Part shown: piece after piece, positions 10,646 through 42,128 of the stretch | Numbering within the stretch: position 1 is the stretch's first letter | How the letters are laid out: the number at the start of each line of letters is the position of its first letter | Assembly (NCBI RefSeq): GCF_016717175.1 | Contig: NZ_JADKFZ010000003.1 | Length of the DNA: 64,000 nt | Reading direction: 5' to 3' (one strand) | Source: Nannocystis sp. | Lineage (GTDB): Bacteria; Myxococcota_A; Polyangia; Nannocystales; Nannocystaceae | The notes under the pieces: model-generated | Told to the model about the DNA's origin: nothing | Database searches by the model: none | What the model saw: only the letters and a program-made list of their open reading frames with translations | Position numbers and translations under genes: made by a program

Positions 10646-12283
10646 GTGCGCCTCCTGACCCTGCTTTGCGGCTCGCTCCTCGCCACCCCGGCCCTCGCTG
10701 GCGAGACCAAGATTGTCCTCGATGGCGCCGTCCCGGACGGCGACCTCGACCACTTCTTCGTGCCCTTCGACGTCCCGCCCGGCACCGTCGAGATCGAGGT
10801 GCAGCACGATGACCTCTCCGACGCCAACATCCTCGACTGGGGCCTCAACGACCCCGCGGGCTTTCGCGGCTGGGGTGGCGGCAACAGCGAGCCCGCCGTC
10901 GTCGGCCTCGCCGCCGCCTCGCGCAGCTACGTCGCCGGCCCGATCGCCGCGGGCGAGTGGCGGGTCGTCGTCGGCAAGGCGAAGCTCGTCGAGACCCCCG
11001 CGAGCTACGCCCTCACGGTGATCCTGCGCGACGCGCCGAGCCTCGCGCCGCAGCCCGAACGCGCCGCCTACCAGCCCTTCGCGGGCCTCGGCGGCGGTCC
11101 GCGCTGGTACGCCGGCGACTTCCACGTCCACTCGCGCGAGAGCGGCGACGCCAAGCCCCCGCTCGCCGAGATCGCCGCCCTCGCGCGCAGCCGCGGCCTC
11201 GACTTCGTCGAGATCAGCGACCACAACACCCTCACCCAGCTCGAGTTCTTCGCCGCCGCCCAGGCCGAACAGTCGGAGCTTCTGTTCGTCCCGGGCAGCG
11301 AGTTCACCACCTACGCGGGCCACGCCAACGCGATCGGCGCGACCGCTTGGGTCGACCACAAGATCGGCCAGCCCGGCGTCACGATCGCCGCCGCAGCCGC
11401 GGCCTACGCCGCCCAGGGCGCGTTGTTCTCGATCAACCACCCGGCGCTCGACCTCGGCGACGTGTGCATCGGCTGCGCCTGGAAGCACGAGATCCCGGCC
11501 GAGCTCGCCGCCGTCGAGGTCGCAACGGGCGGGCTCGACAAGGCCGGTAAGTACCTCACCGACGATAGCATCGCCTTCTGGGACAAGCTGTGCGGCGAGG
11601 GCCGTCACCTCGCGGCGATCGGCGGCAGCGACGACCACCGCGCCGGGAAGGACCTCGGCGCCTTCGACAGCCCCGTCGGCGATCCCACCACGATGATCTA
11701 CGCCGACGAGCTCAGCACCCCCGCGCTGCTCGCGGGCATCGCCGCCGGTCGCACCGTGGTCAAGCTGCAGGGACCCGGCGATCCGATGCTCGAGCTCGCC
11801 GCCGATGTCTCCCCGATCGGCGACACCATCACCGCCGACGCCGTCACCCTGCAGGCCACGGTCACCGGCGCGCCCGGGGGCAGCAGCGTCCGCTTCCTCC
11901 GCAACGGCCAGGGGATGCCCCCGATTCCGATCGACGACGACCCCTTCGTCGCCAGCGTGCAGGCCACCGCGCCCGCCACCGGCGAGGACCGCTGGCGCGC
12001 CGAGGTGATCGTCGAGGGCGCGCCGCGCACGATCACCAGCCATCTGTGGCTGCGCGACGATCCCTCATCCGCCCCGACCACCGGCCCCGAGCCCACCACC
12101 GGCCTCGACGCGAGCAGCGGCAGCACCGCCGCGCCCACCGGCGGCGCTCCGGGCAGCAGCAGCAGCGGTTCCCCCGAGGAGACCCCAGGCGAAACTGGCG
12201 GCTGCGCGTGTGACCTGAAGAAAAGGCCGAGCGCCCCCATGTTGCTGGCGCTGCTCGTGCTCATCCGCCGACGCCGGGACTAG
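10646..12283 (+). CDS. PHP-domain (CehA/McbA-like) metallophosphoesterase with a Cys-motif/TM/Arg-rich C-terminal sorting tail (MYXO-CTERM-like)
   Basis: Signal peptide. WYAGDFHVHSRESGDA...FVEISDHNT PHP motifs. C-terminus GGCACDLKKRPSAPMLLALLVLIRRRRD matches the Cys-motif/TM/Arg-rich architecture of MYXO-CTERM. Confidence 0.75.
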   Translation: MRLLTLLCGSLLATPALAGETKIVLDGAVPDGDLDHFFVPFDVPPGTVEIEVQHDDLSDANILDWGLNDPAGFRGWGGGNSEPAVVGLAAASRSYVAGPIAAGEWRVVVGKAKLVETPASYALTVILRDAPSLAPQPERAAYQPFAGLGGGPRWYAGDFHVHSRESGDAKPPLAEIAALARSRGLDFVEISDHNTLTQLEFFAAAQAEQSELLFVPGSEFTTYAGHANAIGATAWVDHKIGQPGVTIAAAAAAYAAQGALFSINHPALDLGDVCIGCAWKHEIPAELAAVEVATGGLDKAGKYLTDDSIAFWDKLCGEGRHLAAIGGSDDHRAGKDLGAFDSPVGDPTTMIYADELSTPALLAGIAAGRTVVKLQGPGDPMLELAADVSPIGDTITADAVTLQATVTGAPGGSSVRFLRNGQGMPPIPIDDDPFVASVQATAPATGEDRWRAEVIVEGAPRTITSHLWLRDDPSSAPTTGPEPTTGLDASSGSTAAPTGGAPGSSSSGSPEETPGETGGCACDLKKRPSAPMLLALLVLIRRRRD

Positions 12284-12450
12284 CTGGCCCGAGAGACAGC
12301 CTCACACGAAGGGCGAGCGGTACGGCGGCCGGCGCCGGGTGTTCGTCCCGAGCTCGGCGTAGCTGGCCCGAGAGACAGCCTCACACGAAGGGCGAGCGGT
12401 ACGGCGGCCGGCGCGGGGTGTTCGTCCCGAGCTCGGCGTAGCTGGCCCGC
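12281..12450. repeat. 79-bp tandem direct duplication (2 copies plus a 12-bp partial third; one mismatch between copies) containing the stop codons of both convergent flanking genes
   Basis: Copies at 12281-12359 and 12360-12438, with partial 12439-12450. Unit begins with the PHP-gene TAG and contains the tsaB TGA plus the last 20 tsaB codons. The boundaries share gggccagcta microhomology. Confidence 0.85.
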
Positions 12451-35594: not shown

Positions 35595-36755
35595 GTGGCC
35601 GGCCTCTACGTCCACGTCCCGTTCTGCGCCCGCGCCTGTCCCTACTGCGACTTCGACTTCCAGGTCGGTCGCCGCCCCGACGCTGTGGCCTTCATTGCTG
35701 GCCTTGGCTGTGAGCTGGCTGCCCGCAAGGACATGTCCCCGGAGACAGGTGTCATCCCGCCCGGCGACGCCTGGCCGACCGTCTACCTCGGCGGCGGCAC
35801 CCCGAGCCTGCTCGGCGTCGACGGCCTGCGCGCGCTCGCGGCCTTCATCGCGGCCAACTTCCCCGGCGCTGGCCGTGGCCCGGGCTCCGAGTACACCGTC
35901 GAGGTCAACCCGGAGCACGGCGACCCGGCCCTGTTCGCCGCGATCGCCGGCTTCGGCGGCACCCGCGTCTCGCTCGGCGTCCAGACCCTCGACCCCCACG
36001 GCCTCGCCGCCCTCGGTCGCGTCCACAGCCGCACGCGCGCCCTCGCGGCGCTCAGCGACGCCCGCAGCGCCGGCCTCGATATCAGCGCCGACCTCATCGT
36101 CGGCTGGCCCGGACAGACGCTCGCCAGCCTCCGCGCCGACGTGACCGCGATCGTCGATTCGGGCGCCCGCCACGTCTCGATCTACGGCCTCACGATCGAG
36201 GCCGGGACCCCGTGGGAGACCCTGGTCCGCCGCGGCAAGCGGCGCCTCCCCGACCCCGAGCACCAGACCGACCTCCTGCTCGCCGCGGGCGAGGCCCTGT
36301 GCGCCGCCGGCCTCGAGCACTACGAGGTCGCCAGCTACGCCGCCCCCGGCCAGCGCGCCCGCCACAACCTCGGCTACTGGACCTGGCGCGACTACCTCGG
36401 CCTCGGACCCTCGGCCCACTCTGCCGTGTACGCCGACGACGGCTCGGTCATCCGCCGCGGCAACCGCCGCGGCCTCGGCCCCTGGAGCGCCGACCCCGGG
36501 ATCGCCGGCGAGCTCGATCCACAGGCCCCGCTCGCCGCCGCCGCCGAGGGCCTGTGGACCGGCCTGCGCCACCTCCCGGGCCTCGATCTCGCCGCCTTCC
36601 TGGCCCGCTTCCCCGCCGTCGATCGCGCCTGGATCGCCGCCCGCACGCTGCGGCAGGTCGCCCGCGGCAACCTCGAGCTCGGCGACGCCTGCCTGCGCGT
36701 CGCCCCCGGCCGCTGGCTCTGGCACGACTCGATCGCCGCCGATCTGCTCGCCTGA
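35595..36755 (+). CDS. hemW: Radical-SAM heme chaperone HemW (HemN-like, oxygen-independent coproporphyrinogen oxidase family)
   Basis: ORF 35595..36755 (GTG start). LYVHVPFCARACPYCDF CxxxCxxC radical-SAM motif, GGGTPS. Confidence 0.8.
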   Translation: MAGLYVHVPFCARACPYCDFDFQVGRRPDAVAFIAGLGCELAARKDMSPETGVIPPGDAWPTVYLGGGTPSLLGVDGLRALAAFIAANFPGAGRGPGSEYTVEVNPEHGDPALFAAIAGFGGTRVSLGVQTLDPHGLAALGRVHSRTRALAALSDARSAGLDISADLIVGWPGQTLASLRADVTAIVDSGARHVSIYGLTIEAGTPWETLVRRGKRRLPDPEHQTDLLLAAGEALCAAGLEHYEVASYAAPGQRARHNLGYWTWRDYLGLGPSAHSAVYADDGSVIRRGNRRGLGPWSADPGIAGELDPQAPLAAAAEGLWTGLRHLPGLDLAAFLARFPAVDRAWIAARTLRQVARGNLELGDACLRVAPGRWLWHDSIAADLLA

Positions 36756-36785: not shown

Positions 36786-37946
36786 TTGATCGCGCTACCA
36801 AGGGCGACGGTGGCAGAGCTGAGTCCCCGACGACAGCGGATCTTGTTCGCGCTGTGTCGCGACTACATCGTGACCGGTCGCCCGGTCGCGTCGGCCAACC
36901 TCACCCAGCACCTCGAGTGCTCCTCGGCCACGATCCGCAACGAGCTCGCCGCGCTCGAGGAGCACGGCCTCCTGCAGCAGCCGCACCACTCCGCCGGGCG
37001 CCTGCCCACCGCCGCGGGCATGCGCCTCTACGTGCGCTCGCTCGGCGCCCTCCCGCCGCTGCGCGCCGAGGTCCGCCGCGCCGTCGACGTCTCCTTCGGC
37101 GAGGTCGTCCAGGGCCCCGAGGGCATGCGCGCCGCGGTCCGCGTGCTCAGCGAGCTGGTCGGCTGCGTCGCCGTCAGCTTCGTCGGCGAGGGCCGCCGCG
37201 GCGTGATGCGCCAGGTCGACCTCGTCCCCGTGCAAGGTCATCGCGCGCTGGTCGTCGTCGGCCTCGCCGACGGCGCCACCCACGTGCACCCGGTCAACCT
37301 CGACCCCAGCCTCGTCGGCGGGCTCGCCGGCGATAAGGGCGGCGCCTCGCTGCTGCGCGTCCAGGAGCGCCTGCGCGGCCTGTGCATCGGCAAGACCCTC
37401 GCCGAGGCCCGCGCCGATCTCACGCGCATGTGGGCCGAGCAAGAGGCCCACCTCGATCGCCTGCTCGCCGAGAGCCTGCGCCTCGGCCTGTGGCTGTGCA
37501 GCGCCGCCGCCCTCGATCCGCTGTGGGTCCAGATCGCCGGCCAGAAGCTGCTCGCCGGCCACAGCGGCACCACCCTCGCGCAGATCCTCAGCCTCTTCGA
37601 CGACTATCACAGCCTCGCGGAGCTGCTGTGTCAGCTGCTCCCGGAGCAGGTCGGCTCGGCCCGCGCCGAGGTCCACGTCGCCGGCGAGGTCCCGGGCACG
37701 GCTGGCCCCGCGGGCGCAGCAGGCCCCGCGGGCGCAGCAGGGCCCGGCGGTCTGTTCATCCGCGACGAGCCGCTCGTGCTCGCGGGGCTTAGCCTGGTCG
37801 GCTGTCGCCTCCACTCGACCGACGACGACGGCCGCAAGACCACCGCCGTCGCGCTGCTGGGCCCCGATCACATGGATTACGAGGCCGTCATTCCTCTGGT
37901 AGAGTACGCCGCCCAGGCACTGGCGGCGCGTACAAGCGAGGGATAG
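36786..37946 (+). CDS. hrcA: Heat-inducible transcription repressor HrcA (a GTG start at 36810 is equally plausible)
   Basis: ORF 36786..37946. N-terminal wHTH (RQRILFALCRDYIVTGRPVAS) and HrcA C-terminal domain. Directly upstream of grpE. Confidence 0.8.
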   Translation: MIALPRATVAELSPRRQRILFALCRDYIVTGRPVASANLTQHLECSSATIRNELAALEEHGLLQQPHHSAGRLPTAAGMRLYVRSLGALPPLRAEVRRAVDVSFGEVVQGPEGMRAAVRVLSELVGCVAVSFVGEGRRGVMRQVDLVPVQGHRALVVVGLADGATHVHPVNLDPSLVGGLAGDKGGASLLRVQERLRGLCIGKTLAEARADLTRMWAEQEAHLDRLLAESLRLGLWLCSAAALDPLWVQIAGQKLLAGHSGTTLAQILSLFDDYHSLAELLCQLLPEQVGSARAEVHVAGEVPGTAGPAGAAGPAGAAGPGGLFIRDEPLVLAGLSLVGCRLHSTDDDGRKTTAVALLGPDHMDYEAVIPLVEYAAQALAARTSEG

Positions 37947-37996: not shown

Positions 37997-38548
37997 ATGA
38001 GCCAAGCAAGCAACGACCCCGACCAAAGCCCCGACCACTCGGCCGCCGGCATGGCGCTCCTGGACGCCGAGAAGCTCGCCCTGGCCGAGCAGGAGGTCGC
38101 GAGCCTCAAGGACAAGTGGCTCCGCGCCGTCGCCGATCACGAGAACTTCAAGAAGCGCACCCGTCGCGAGATCGACGACGCCGTGTTCCGCGCCCGCCAG
38201 GACCTGCTCAGCAGCTTCTTCCCGACCGCCGACAACCTCGACCGCGCGCTCGAGCTGGCCCGCGGCAACGAGCAGCTGTTCAAGGGCATCGAGATGGTCG
38301 CCCACGAGTTTCGCGGCGCGCTCGCCCGCCACGGCATCGAGCCCGTGCCCACCGTCGGCCACCCCTTCGACCCGGCCCTGCACGAGGCCCTCTCGCAGGT
38401 CGACTCCGCCGACCACGCGCCCGGCACCGTCACCTTCGAGTTCGAACGCGGCTACCGCCAGGGCGATCGCCTCCTGCGCCCCGCTCGCGTGGTGATCGCC
38501 GGCCCCGGCTCGACTGGCTCGCCTGGCAAGGCCGGCCCCGCGGCGTGA
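37997..38548 (+). CDS. grpE: Nucleotide exchange factor GrpE
   Basis: ORF 37997..38548. DKWLRAVADHENFKKRTRRE and the C-terminal beta-domain typical of GrpE. Confidence 0.9.
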   Translation: MSQASNDPDQSPDHSAAGMALLDAEKLALAEQEVASLKDKWLRAVADHENFKKRTRREIDDAVFRARQDLLSSFFPTADNLDRALELARGNEQLFKGIEMVAHEFRGALARHGIEPVPTVGHPFDPALHEALSQVDSADHAPGTVTFEFERGYRQGDRLLRPARVVIAGPGSTGSPGKAGPAA

Positions 38549-38568: not shown

Positions 38569-40434
38569 ATGACGAGCAAGCCGGGCCCGATCCTCGGCAT
38601 CGACCTGGGGACCACCAACTCCTGCGTCGCCGTGATGGACGGCGGCGAGGCGCGCGTGCTCGCCAACCGCGAGGGCAGCCGCACCACCCCGAGCGTCGTC
38701 GCCTTCGTCGGCGACGACATCCTCGTCGGCGAGGCCGCCCGCCAGCGCGCCAGCAAAGATCCAGCCGCCACCGTGTTCGCCGCCAAGCGCCTCATCGGCC
38801 GCAAGTTCGCCGAGGTCGAGGCCGTGCGCCGCGGGCTGCCTTACACCGTCGTCGCCGCGGCCAACGGCGACGCCTGGGCCGAAGTCCACGGCCGCCGCCG
38901 CTCACCCAGCCAGATCTCCGCGCAGGTGCTCGCGTACCTCAAGGACGCCGCCGCCGACGCGCTCGGCGAGCCGGTCACCCGCGCCATCATCACCGTCCCC
39001 GCCTACTTCGACGACGCCCAGCGCCAGGCCACCCGCGACGCCGGCACCATCGCCGGCCTCCGCGTCGAGCGCATCCTCAGCGAGCCCACCGCCGCCGCCC
39101 TCGCTTACGGCCTCCATGACCGCAAGGACAGGCCGCCCCAGATCGTCGCCGTCTACGACCTCGGCGGCGGCACCTTCGACGTCTCCCTGCTCGAGCTGCG
39201 CAGCGGCGCCTTCGAGGTCCTCGCCACCGCCGGCGACTCGCAGCTCGGCGGCGAGGACTTCGACAGCGCCGTCGTCGATCACATCGCCGACCTGTTCCAG
39301 CGCGAGCACGGCGTCGATCTGCGCAGCGATCGCGCCGCCCTCGCGCGCCTGCGTGACGCCGCCCAGCGGGCCAAGCACGAGCTCAGCTGGGCCCTCGCCA
39401 CCGAGCTGAACCTGCCCTTCATCGCCGCCGTCGACGGCCAGCCGCTGCACCTCGCGCTCACGCTCACCCGCCGCGAACTCGAGCGCCTCACGCGGCCGCT
39501 GATCGATCGCAGCCTCGGCCCCTGTCGCCGCGTCCTCGCCGACGCCGGCCTGCGCCGCGACCAGGTCGAGGAGGTCCTGCTGGTCGGCGGCCAGACCCGC
39601 ATGCCCGCGGTCGTCGAGGCCGTGGCCGAGTGCTTCGGCCGCCAGCCCAGCACCGCCCACAACCCCGACGAGGTCGTGGCGATCGGCGCCGCGATCCAGG
39701 GCGCCGTCCTGGCCGGCGAGCTCGCCGACCTCGTCCTGCTCGACGTCGTCCCGCTCAGCATCGGCGTCGAGACCCAGGGCGGCGTGTTCTCGGTGCTGAT
39801 CCCCCGCAACACCCCGATCCCCACCCGCCGCACCGAGACCTTCAGCACCAGCGTCGACAACCAATCGATCGTGCACGTGCACGTGCTCCAGGGTCTGCGC
39901 GAGATGGCCGAGGACAACCGCAGCCTCGCCCGCCTGCAGCTCACCGACATCCCGCCCGCCCCGCGCGGCGCCCCGCAGATCCAGGTCCGCTTCGAGCTCG
40001 ACGCCGACGCGATCCTCCGCGTCAGCGCCCGCGAGCTGCTCAGCGGCAAGGAGGCCGCGATCGTCGCCCAGCCCGCCTCCGGCCTGACCCGCGCCGAGGT
40101 CCAGGCGCTCGCCCAGGAGGCCGAGGACGCCCGCCAGCACGACCTCTCCCGCCGCGCCATCGTCGAGACGCGCAACCGCTGCGAGACCCTCGCCTACGCC
40201 TGCGAGCGCGCCCTCGAGGGCTACGGCGAGGGCCTCCCCGCCGCCGTCCGCGAGTCGGTGCAGCGCGACGTCGCGGCCCTGCGCGGGCTGCTCGGTGACC
40301 ATGCGGGCGCCCGCGGCGGCCCCGAGCTGCAAGCCGCCTTCGCCGCGCTCGAGCGATCGTCCCGCCAGATCTACGCCGCGATGCTCGGCGACGCCGAGAC
40401 ACCCGCCCTGCTCGCCGAGGGGTCCCGCGAATGA
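38569..40434 (+). CDS. dnaK: Hsp70-family chaperone (DnaK-like, 622 aa, short C-terminal lid)
   Basis: Internal ATG (38569) of ORF 37963..40434. [25 protein letters not shown], Hsp70 signatures. Its last 16 codons lie in copy 1 of the 74-bp repeat. Confidence 0.8.
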
Positions 40435-40611
40435 GCTACCAGGATCACCACGCCGTCCTCGGCGACGCCGAGACACCCGCCCTGCTCGCCGAGGGGTCCC
40501 GCGAATGAGCTACCAGGATCACCACGCCGTCCTCGGCGAAACACCCGCCCTGCTCGCCGAGGGGTCCCGCGAATGAGCTACCAGGATCACTACGCCGTCC
40601 TCGGCGTCGCC
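40384..40611. repeat. 74-bp tandem repeat x3 (third copy 68 bp) spanning the dnaK stop / dnaJ start junction (ATGA overlap)
   Basis: Copies at 40384-40457, 40458-40531 and 40532-40599. Each holds ...LLAEGSRE-stop overlapping ATGAGCTACCAGGATCAC (MSYQDH). A ctcggcg(a/t)cgcc microhomology sits at the boundaries. Confidence 0.9.
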
Positions 40612-41679
40612 GCCAACGCATCGCAGGACGAGATCAAGGCCGCCTACCGCCGCCTCGCCCTCGCCACGCACCCCGATCGCCACCCCGACGACCCCGACGC
40701 CGAGGCCCGCTTCCGCGCCATCTCCACCGCCTACGCCGTCCTCAGCGACCCGGCCCAGCGCGCCCGCTACGACACCCAGCGCCTCCTCCCCGAGACCCTG
40801 ATCGGCGGGCAGGGCGGGCAGGGGGTCAGCCTCCAGACCGCGAAGGACCTGCTCGCCGCCGTCGTCGGCGACGTGTTCGGCCGCCAGCGCCGCGAGCGTC
40901 GCCGCGGCCGCGACATCCGCTACACCCTCACCGTCGAGCTCGCCCAGGCCGTCCTCGGCGGCGAGCACGAGATCAACTTCGAGGCCGCCGGCGCCTGCAG
41001 CACCTGCGGCGGCACCGGGGCCCGCCCCGCCGGGCGCCCGCCCATCACCTGTCCCTTGTGCCAGGGTCGCGGCGAGGTCAAGGGCGAGGGCTTTCTGCGC
41101 CGCTACAGCCCGTGCGGCCGCTGCGGCGGCGTCGGCATGATCCAGCAAGATCCCTGCGCGCCCTGCTCCGGCCGCGGCTCGCGGCGGGAGAAGCGGAGCT
41201 TCCACGTGCGCCTCCCGCCCGGCACCGAGTCGGGCGTCGAGAAGCTCGTCGAGGGCCAGGGCGAGCCCGGTCAATTCGGCGGCGCACCCGGGCACCTGCG
41301 GGTCACCATCAACGTCCGCCCGCACCCGTGGCTGCGCCGCGAGGGCCTCGACATCCTCGGCGAGCTCTACGTAAGCCTCGGCGAGGCCGCCCGCGGCGGC
41401 AAGCTCCCGGTGCCCACCCTCACCGGGGTGGCGATGGTCGAGATCCCCGCCGGCGTGACCACCGGCGCCAAGCTGCGCCTGCGTGGCAAGGGCGCCCCCG
41501 CCGAGGCCGGACGTCCCGGCGATCAGATCGTCACCGTCGTGATCGAGACCCCGCGGATCACCACCGCCACCGGCGCCCCCGCGACCCACCTCGCCAGCGC
41601 CCTCGACGCCCTCGAGCGCGCCTTCGAGGCCGATCCCCAGCTGCTCCCGCGTCGCGCCGCCCAGCGCAGCGGCGCCTGA
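40573..41679 (+). CDS. dnaJ: Chaperone DnaJ (J domain, Gly-rich region, CxxCxGxG zinc finger)
   Basis: ORF 40573..41679. YAVLGV...HPDR J-domain. CSTCGGTG/CPLCQGRG/CGRCGGVG/CAPCSGRG repeats. The start lies in copy 3 of the repeat. Confidence 0.9.
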   Translation: MSYQDHYAVLGVAANASQDEIKAAYRRLALATHPDRHPDDPDAEARFRAISTAYAVLSDPAQRARYDTQRLLPETLIGGQGGQGVSLQTAKDLLAAVVGDVFGRQRRERRRGRDIRYTLTVELAQAVLGGEHEINFEAAGACSTCGGTGARPAGRPPITCPLCQGRGEVKGEGFLRRYSPCGRCGGVGMIQQDPCAPCSGRGSRREKRSFHVRLPPGTESGVEKLVEGQGEPGQFGGAPGHLRVTINVRPHPWLRREGLDILGELYVSLGEAARGGKLPVPTLTGVAMVEIPAGVTTGAKLRLRGKGAPAEAGRPGDQIVTVVIETPRITTATGAPATHLASALDALERAFEADPQLLPRRAAQRSGA

Positions 41680-41759: not shown

Positions 41760-42128
41760 TTGCTCGCACGCATGGCAACGGGTGACGCGAACAAGCAGCT
41801 GCAGGAGCTCGAGCAGCTGGCGAGCAACCTCGGCGTGCGCGTCAGCTACGACGCCATGACGGGCCTCAGCCAGGGCGGCGGCGGCCTGTGCAAGGTGCGC
41901 GGCGAGTGGCGCATCATCATGGACAAGCGGCTCAAGGCGGTGGAGCGCATGCAGGTGATCTCCGACGCCCTGCGCTCACGCTTCGACACCGAGGCCCACT
42001 TCGTCTCGCCGCAGGTCCGCAGCATGCTCGCGCCAATGGCTGGCATCCCGGTTGGCATCCCGGTTGGCATCCCGGCTGGCATCCCGGCTGGCATCCCGGT
42101 TGGCGTCCCGGCACCTGCGGGCACCTGA
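41760..42128 (+). CDS. Hypothetical protein ending in a (GIPV/GIPA)x6 repeat
   Basis: ORF 41760..42128. A 12-bp in-frame tandem repeat ggcatcccgg(t/c)t x6 at 42042-42113 encodes the C-terminus. Confidence 0.4.
   Translation: MLARMATGDANKQLQELEQLASNLGVRVSYDAMTGLSQGGGGLCKVRGEWRIIMDKRLKAVERMQVISDALRSRFDTEAHFVSPQVRSMLAPMAGIPVGIPVGIPAGIPAGIPVGVPAPAGT

Follow-up and report, generated by a model that had tools for sequence, protein, structure and literature searches.

The window analysed here is a 64,000-nucleotide stretch of contig NZ_JADKFZ010000003.1 (assembly GCF_016717175.1) of Nannocystis sp., and the element in question is a tandem array that lies on the junction between dnaK and dnaJ within a hrcA-grpE-dnaK-dnaJ gene set. 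The order of the genes and the family membership of their products (HrcA, GrpE, HSP70 and DnaJ by Pfam) fit the canonical operon of this composition. The genes and repeat features of the locus are given below (ORF, open reading frame; SD, Shine-Dalgarno), with positions counted from the first nucleotide of the window.

36810..37946, + strand: hrcA, heat-shock repressor gene and first gene of the operon, 378 aa (Pfam HrcA 2.9e-16; TIGR00331 8.3e-45, under the TIGR00331 cut-off).
37997..38548, + strand: grpE (exact match to MBK9753806.1 and MBK7827766.1, named "nucleotide exchange factor GrpE [Nannocystis sp.]" at NCBI; an orthologue has PF01025).
38569..40434, + strand: dnaK, 621 aa (Pfam HSP70 8.7e-214; 100% match to MBK9753807.1).
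40384..40457, + strand: repeat copy 1, 74 bp, with the functional dnaK tail and stop and a decoy dnaJ start, MSYQDHHAV.
40458..40531, + strand: repeat copy 2, 74 bp, 100% identical to copy 1, both halves decoy.
40532..40599, + strand: repeat copy 3, 68 bp, with a decoy dnaK tail and the functional SD-like motif and dnaJ start, MSYQDHYAV.
40417..40422, 40491-40496 and 40559-40564, + strand: SD-like GAGGGG, at -14 to -9 relative to each ATG.
40431..40508, + strand: mini-ORF 1, 25 codons; its ATG overlaps the dnaK TGA and its own TGA overlaps the ATG of mini-ORF 2.
40505..40576, + strand: mini-ORF 2, 23 codons; its own TGA overlaps the dnaJ ATG.
40573..41679, + strand: dnaJ, 368 aa, intact (Pfam DnaJ 2.5e-25, DnaJ_CXXCXGXG 4.5e-9, DnaJ_C 7.4e-36; exact match to MBK9753808.1 / WP_293251315.1).
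40600..40612, + strand: J-side boundary repeat CTCGGCGTCGCCG, an 11/12 direct match to the K-side repeat at 40384-40395.

An exact register check resolves positions 40384-40599 into three head-to-tail units of 74, 74 and 68 bp, and Tandem Repeats Finder (TRF) reports a single array at 40384-40612 with a period of 74, 3.2 copies and a score of 402. Every unit holds the last 16 codons of dnaK, the SD-like GAGGGG, an ATGA stop/start overlap and the first codons of dnaJ. In its dnaK-tail half, copy 3 lacks 6 bp in frame relative to copies 1 and 2 and has a G>A next to this deletion; in its dnaJ-start half it has a C>T, corresponding to a Tyr in place of a His codon. Directly 3' of copy 3, at 40600, CTCGGCGTCGCC represents the beginning of a fourth unit with one mismatch. 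The passage from copy 1 to copy 2 is marked by the k-mer CACGCCGTCCTCGGCGACGCCGAGACACC, and that from copy 2 to copy 3 by CACGCCGTCCTCGGCGAAACACCC. In the whole 64 kb, a 43-nt core of the unit occurs three times, always within the array, against 0 occurrences expected from shuffles. The tandem triplication at 40384-40599 is real in the sequence and far beyond chance. A mobile or dispersed repeat, similar to miniature inverted-repeat transposable elements or repetitive extragenic palindromes (MITE/REP-like), was also considered and rejected, the 43-nt core being confined to the array within the 64-kb window and the unit being composed of gene ends.

The sequence, TRF, the register check and the profile searches thus bear out the earlier note on this DNA, which had described a tandem triplication on the dnaK-dnaJ ATGA junction within hrcA-grpE-dnaK-dnaJ. 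Some details of that description were amended. Among the changes in copy 3, the 6-bp deletion and the H/Y codon had been listed, and the adjacent G>A had been left out. The unit does contain the last 16 codons of dnaK, but its dnaJ part comprises 9 codons in the 74-bp register, since the 11 codons counted previously include the Leu-Gly of the boundary repeat. The start of dnaK was corrected to 38569, as indicated by the 621-aa match to MBK9753807.1.

The stop codon of dnaK is the TGA of copy 1 (40432-40434), and solely this copy terminates the gene, while solely the third ATG, at 40573 in copy 3, runs on into the J domain; the register check agrees with the earlier observations on both points. 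The three ATGA overlaps (40431-34, 40505-08 and 40573-76) are identical, as are the 30 nt that precede each of the three ATGs. The 3' end of dnaK, GAGGG(G/T)TCCCGCGAATGA, is kept among relatives with otherwise unlike tails. The 138 nt from the dnaK stop to the dnaJ start are wholly covered by the two chained mini-ORFs, which are the two decoy dnaJ starts of 25 and 23 codons with intact ATGA that had been recognised before. Neither DnaK (621 aa) nor DnaJ (368 aa) is changed by the array. Because the three units are each 2 mod 3 in length, dnaK and dnaJ share one reading frame, with one TGA and 46 sense codons (ATRITTPSS...RRGVPR) between them (window 40432-40575), and there is no further in-frame stop from 40435 to 41679. 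The product of UGA readthrough, if any, would be a DnaK-linker-DnaJ fusion of about 1036 aa.

The same array was found in a second genome by means of the exact GrpE sequence of the window. This is contig CAXWJW010000043.1 of assembly GCA_964267895.1, labelled L022 here (L030 when reached via the HrcA look-up). Its array likewise consists of units of 74, 74 and 68 bp, and copy 3 shows the 6-bp deletion and the G>A found in the window. L022 differs from the window by 195 mismatches and 32 gap openings over 9.5 kb (97.5% identity) and therefore represents a different strain, the per-gene divergence being 0.3-0.9% outside one divergent patch of dnaK. Within the array, three positions differ (40449, 40559 and 40565): copy 1 of L022 has TAC where copy 1 of the window has CAC, copy 2 of L022 has CAC, and the SD-like region of copy 3 reads AAGGGGG in L022 where the window has GAGGGGT (two changes). 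Single-base deletions split hrcA, dnaK and dnaJ in L022 (window-equivalent positions 36786, 38838 and 40820) and are probably long-read consensus errors; the two substitutions in the SD-like region of its copy 3 should therefore be treated with caution. The divergent dnaK patch, at 39039-39140, contains many substitutions and a 6-nt indel between the two genomes, and the L022 protein reads AGLLAGLRVDRIINEP...LDKGDTEQAVAV there; the sequence suggests recombination with another dnaK allele or paralogue.

The second genome bears on the possibility, raised in the earlier note, that the array was produced in assembly or polishing, either as a collapsed or expanded repeat or as a chimera of strain variants, and that the true genome has a single junction. 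The source of the window is a metagenome-assembled genome (MAG) of an uncultured Nannocystis, copies 1 and 2 are identical, so that their number could in principle be misjudged, and no short-read contig spanning the array was recovered by the look-ups described below. However, the 74/74/68 structure recurs in L022, which was assembled independently from a different strain and in which copy 1 is not identical to copy 2. The array also contains two distinct kinds of novel junction, …GCCGTC joined to CTCGGCGACGCCGAG and …GCCGTC joined to CTCGGCGAAACACC, each with an overlap of only 7 nt with the true sequence, and such junctions should not be able to arise in an assembler without supporting reads. 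Moreover, a Logan contig (SRR11673999), which ends inside dnaK, matches 3.3 kb of the window, immediately upstream, at 100% identity, and therefore the window consensus is otherwise accurate. An artefact is thus very improbable and was rejected: since an independent MAG of a different strain carries the same array, the sequences indicate that it is not a product of assembly and that it was present before the strains of the window and L022 split. A third MAG of the lineage is known by its proteins MBK7827766-68, and its GrpE (MBK7827766.1) is identical to that of the window.

All other relatives examined have a single junction. The species-representative genomes scanned with DnaJ included three Nannocystis MAGs (80-91% DnaJ identity), Enhygromyxa, Plesiocystis and other Nannocystaceae, and 15 further junction-crossing contigs (L013-L021, L024-L029), all single-copy, came from a junction-motif scan of metagenomes and from look-ups of close DnaJ and DnaK clusters. 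Six of the latter (L014, L024-L027 and L029), from JGI, ENA and Logan samples, constitute a sister lineage; the identity of L014 to the window is 95% for dnaK and 98% for dnaJ. The junction of the sister lineage reads ...ATG CTCGGCGACGCC GAG CCA CCC ... GAATGAGCTACCAGGATCACTACGCCGTC CTCGGCGTCGCC..., i.e. one unit between both boundary repeats, and CTCGGCGACGCC and CTCGGCGTCGCC are exactly 74 bp apart in all six single-copy contigs. ATGA is present at the single junction of L003, L013, L014, L015-L021 and L024-L029, and residue 7 of DnaJ is Tyr (TAC) in all relatives, in line with the conservation of this Tyr at the J-domain N-terminus.

Because the sister lineage has exactly the junction predicted for the ancestor, one copy with an ATGA overlap and Tyr at DnaJ residue 7 is the ancestral state, and the His codons of the decoy starts are derived. 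The H-to-Y change that the earlier note had assigned to copy 3 is thereby reversed in direction, the change being Y>H in the decoy copies. The comparison of orthologous loci for a single-copy junction, which the earlier note had proposed, showed one copy in the sister lineage and all other relatives examined. The copy numbers observed are one, in the sister lineage, and three, in the window and L022, and the expansion is dated after the split of the sister lineage and before the split between the window and L022.

One of the single-copy contigs, L028 (Logan SRR11674015, ~70-230), is a mosaic in which an L003-type dnaK tail (…LSELVPSTEPALLNEGSRE) is joined to a dnaJ 5' end of the window/sister type (…GCCGTCCTCGGCGTCGCCGCCAACGCATC), which suggests between-lineage recombination at or near the junction.

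DnaK varies from 611 to 645 aa in the family, and its C-terminal tail is rich in repeats among the relatives: GGGACTGGCGAC is present five times in a Nannocystaceae MAG (L010 ~2910-2990), and GTCGACCGATCG repeats are found upstream of the junction in L013. The final ~20 nt before ATGA are kept among close relatives. The dnaK tail is a hot spot of slippage.

The origin of the array may be explained by the boundary repeats. CTCGGCGACGCC, which encodes Leu-Gly-Asp-Ala of DnaK, and CTCGGCGTCGCC, which encodes Leu-Gly-Val-Ala of DnaJ, match directly at 11/12 positions, and this microhomology, CTCGGCG(A/T)CGCC, already exists in the single-copy ancestor, which fits the slippage origin proposed earlier on the basis of the same motif. 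The K-side sequence CTCGGCGACGCCGAG is a palindrome, and for this reason the J-side repeat is also the complement of the K side: when reverse-complemented, K-side CGGCGACGCCGAG (40386-40398) is identical to the J-side sequence for 13 nt, and a duplex of the two has an energy of -28.5 kcal/mol. In the minimum free energy (MFE) fold of the single-copy junction of a relative, this 13-nt boundary stem brackets the unit. Compared by eye, the 13-bp stem is not kept in more distant relatives, and no RNA function is claimed for it; a scan of 39800-41200 against Rfam (E<=1) returned no known RNA family, and when the array and the single-copy junction were folded as RNA, the z-scores were near -1.7, which is not significant.

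Direct repeats held together by a stem are a textbook substrate for slipped-strand misalignment. On single-stranded DNA, the K-side and J-side repeats may pair as a stem, bringing the two repeats together, and slipped-strand misalignment in replication would then duplicate the 74-bp segment. The third copy may have been added by further slippage or by unequal exchange between the 74-bp copies. Repeats matching at 11/12 within 60-120 nt are found at about 0.9% of the window positions, and substrates for slippage are therefore plentiful. A second tandem duplication is located at 12281-12449 (79-bp unit, 2.1 copies, one mismatch, 98% identical) and has a microhomology of 11 nt, TAGCTGGCCCG, at its boundaries. 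It begins right at the TAG stop of a + strand ORF (10646-12283, GC3, i.e. G+C at third codon positions, of 0.94), and no convincing gene was found by codon-position GC on the minus-strand side of 12281-12449. Since the window contains this second 79-bp duplication and the dnaK tails are variable, the array is likely to be a product of a general mutational process, visible here because it is harmless at this site. No difference between copies, and none within the array between the window and L022, touches a segment coding for DnaK or DnaJ, and such confinement to the decoy parts is what relaxed constraint would predict. The array is therefore probably a real, inherited and lineage-specific expansion, from one copy to three, of a 74-bp segment by replication slippage, tolerated and nearly neutral, and not a regulatory device.

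Several points weigh against this explanation. The confinement of changes to the decoy parts comprises three events, with decoy and functional parts of roughly equal length, so that its probability is about 1/8 and the pattern is statistically weak. The array was read in two genomes, the window and L022, and both sources appear to be long-read MAGs. A long-read study of Danish activated sludge (PMC8012365), a possible source of the window MAG, includes Nannocystaceae MAGs built by CANU from Nanopore data, with Illumina reads used for polishing. Among the matches to DnaJ, DnaK (618 and 621 aa), the DnaJ of the second MAG (P0124), the 118-aa protein encoded downstream and HrcA, there was no contig from short reads that extended across the array. 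Instability is usual for short tandem repeats, and the presence of exactly three copies and of an in-frame deletion across the strain split could reflect selection.

The same exact-sequence look-ups (DnaJ, DnaK, P0124, the 118-aa protein and HrcA) yielded no further array-bearing contigs, and a protein search with the array-frame peptide followed by the J domain, intended for gene calls truncated inside the array, gave J-domain matches only.

The array can be tolerated because each unit rebuilds the dnaK tail, the SD-like motif and the ATGA overlap. With a complete junction in every unit, DnaK ends as usual in copy 1, and DnaJ starts as usual in the last copy with its native 60 nt upstream. 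In addition, termination-reinitiation may relay ribosomes from dnaK through ORF1 and ORF2 to dnaJ via the ATGA overlaps. For gene pairs of E. coli and Haloferax, it was shown that reinitiation needs the overlap, a 38-nt gap cutting it by 80-100%, and that termination-reinitiation requires no more of the upstream gene than its last 15 nt (PMC10666635). Given this effect of a 38-nt gap, a plain insertion of 138 nt would uncouple dnaJ, whereas a copy of the junction can relay ribosomes. If d is de novo initiation per site, c the reinitiation efficiency and K the dnaK flux, DnaJ synthesis would change from d + cK to d(1 + c + c²) + c³K, and DnaJ output would fall if coupling dominates and would change little if the SD-like site dominates. 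As far as can be judged from the sequence, the net effect on DnaJ output is most likely none or modest, and the array is best understood as a structural variant, nearly neutral and drifting outside its DnaK- and DnaJ-coding parts.

Another possible explanation might be that the array is a selected translational attenuator or rheostat, in which the coupled component of DnaJ synthesis goes from c to c cubed, DnaJ is lowered relative to DnaK and the copy number tunes the ratio. Exactly three copies are found in two strains that have diverged by 0.3-2% locally, the deletion in copy 3 is a multiple of three, so that ORF2 still stops on the dnaJ ATG, and coupling is strongly distance-dependent in the systems tested, so that the mini-ORFs should affect the flux. 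However, the integrity of the relay follows automatically from the copying of the junction and selection is not needed for it, an in-frame deletion is expected by chance in 1 of 3 cases, and the mini-ORF peptides are unlike between the strains, differing by H/Y and by E>K and S>A in L022. Besides, the six sister-lineage contigs and all other relatives have one copy, and the presence of an SD-like motif in each copy probably leaves de novo initiation of dnaJ unchanged. A selected attenuator is thus considered unlikely. It is even less likely that the three-copy array is under selection as a copy-number-tunable relay for DnaJ versus DnaK, with an in-frame dnaJ and a rare readthrough fusion as side effects. 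The earlier note had suggested that the same triplication in a related strain would speak for a stable and possibly functional element; the array of L022 agrees with stability, and as to function the nearly neutral variant is favoured.

The triplication could also matter through the products of its own reading frames, that is, through the DnaK-linker-DnaJ fusion formed by UGA readthrough or through the 25- and 23-aa chimeric peptides, in which a DnaJ N-terminus is linked to a DnaK C-terminus. The fusion is allowed by the shared frame and the lack of another stop mentioned above, and the frame relation holds in L022 too, as the unit lengths are equal there. Nevertheless, the in-frame state is the arithmetic of units of 2 mod 3, and stop-free runs are expected at 72% GC (the G+C content of the window is 71.6%). 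There is no readthrough signal, and the Rfam scan of 39800-41200 gave no match such as a selenocysteine insertion sequence (SECIS). A UGA with G as the next base is not known to be leaky in E. coli, which was counted against readthrough. As for the peptides, conservation of the kind seen in regulatory leader ORFs was not found: the mini-ORFs occur in the window and L022, where their sequences are not conserved, and have no counterpart in any of the other relatives examined. A role of either the fusion or the peptides is extremely doubtful.

In comparison with known systems, the array most resembles duplications and minisatellites formed by slippage. Slipped-strand tandem duplication in bacteria is mediated by microhomology and favoured by quasi-palindromes. 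The dnaK-dnaJ array shares with such duplications the head-to-tail arrangement, the direct repeats at the unit boundaries in the ancestor, the stem joining these repeats and a derived state restricted to one lineage, and differs in that its unit straddles a 4-nt gene overlap, so that each copy recreates the stop/start junction. Most intragenic tandem duplications alter the product, whereas this array leaves both products unchanged. As in coupling through ATGA overlaps (Huber et al. 2019, PMC6728339; Huber et al. 2023, PMC10666635), there is a 4-nt overlap with an SD-like motif inside the upstream gene, and this is kept at all three junctions. In contrast to that coupling, the array chains three junctions through two ORFs of 23-25 codons instead of one direct gene overlap.

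A further parallel is provided by leader-peptide coupling. In plasmid R1, the 24-codon tap ORF is required for repA translation, and here, too, a very short ORF terminating beside a downstream start could deliver ribosomes to it. Leader ORFs of the tap-repA type are, however, conserved and regulated by antisense RNA and structure opening, whereas the mini-ORFs of the array are accidental copies of gene ends, unlike between two strains and with no evidence of regulation. In the literature, coupling and overlapping genes have been treated, and no precedent for a tandem duplication on a coupling junction was found; of 106 papers matched, the 15 that were listed lacked the term "tandem duplication", which is weak evidence of absence. 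The array is an ordinary microhomology-mediated tandem expansion of the slippage type, unusual in regenerating a stop/start junction with each copy, and a new regulatory system is not revealed on present evidence.

The products of the operon were assigned with different degrees of certainty. DnaK scores 777.8 with NF001413, above the cut-off of 648, and does not reach the cut-off of TIGR02350. DnaJ has the J domain, the Zn-finger CXXCXGXG domain and the C-terminal domain, and is under both NCBIfam DnaJ cut-offs; its name at NCBI is just "J domain-containing protein". The 378-aa gene call of hrcA is identical in L023 and L030. Although hrcA heads the operon, the controlling inverted repeat of chaperone expression (CIRCE operator, TTAGCACTC-N9-GAGTGCTAA) had no match at <=3 mismatches in the whole window (1-64000), and the HrcA operator sequence in Myxococcota may differ from the CIRCE consensus. 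Myxobacteria have several Hsp70 paralogues. Since DnaJ and DnaK miss some family cut-offs and CIRCE was not found, the designation of hrcA-grpE-dnaK-dnaJ as the main chaperone operon is plausible from the gene order and not proven. The operon is flanked by the following genes.

35595-36755, + strand: hemW-like radical SAM protein gene, assigned by profile search.
41772-42128, downstream of dnaJ: small ORF for a 118-aa protein with no family match.

The small ORF contains a 12-nt coding repeat at 42041-42111, which gives a C-terminal (GIPV/GIPA)n; the repeat sequence is unlike between the window and L022, so that it represents a further slippage-prone tract. Two ENA proteins, P0095 (488 aa) and P0030 (369 aa), combine an unrelated N-terminus with the zinc-finger/C-terminal part of DnaJ, without the J domain, this part being 94% and 82% identical, respectively, to that of the window DnaJ. 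These proteins may come from chimeric contigs or from real rearrangements.

The public assemblies thus show the ancestor, the three-copy derived state and the early drift in the non-functional halves, and they provide a clean natural example of such an expansion. A tandem duplication over a 4-nt gene overlap is self-healing, in that both proteins and the local initiation context are rebuilt. For the quality control of annotation and assembly, the case indicates that a tandem array of this kind, found at a gene junction in a long-read MAG, is not necessarily an artefact. The array also represents a ready-made natural construct for chained termination-reinitiation and, if a selected relay were true, it would be a case of natural tandem-repeat tuning of translational coupling in a core chaperone operon.

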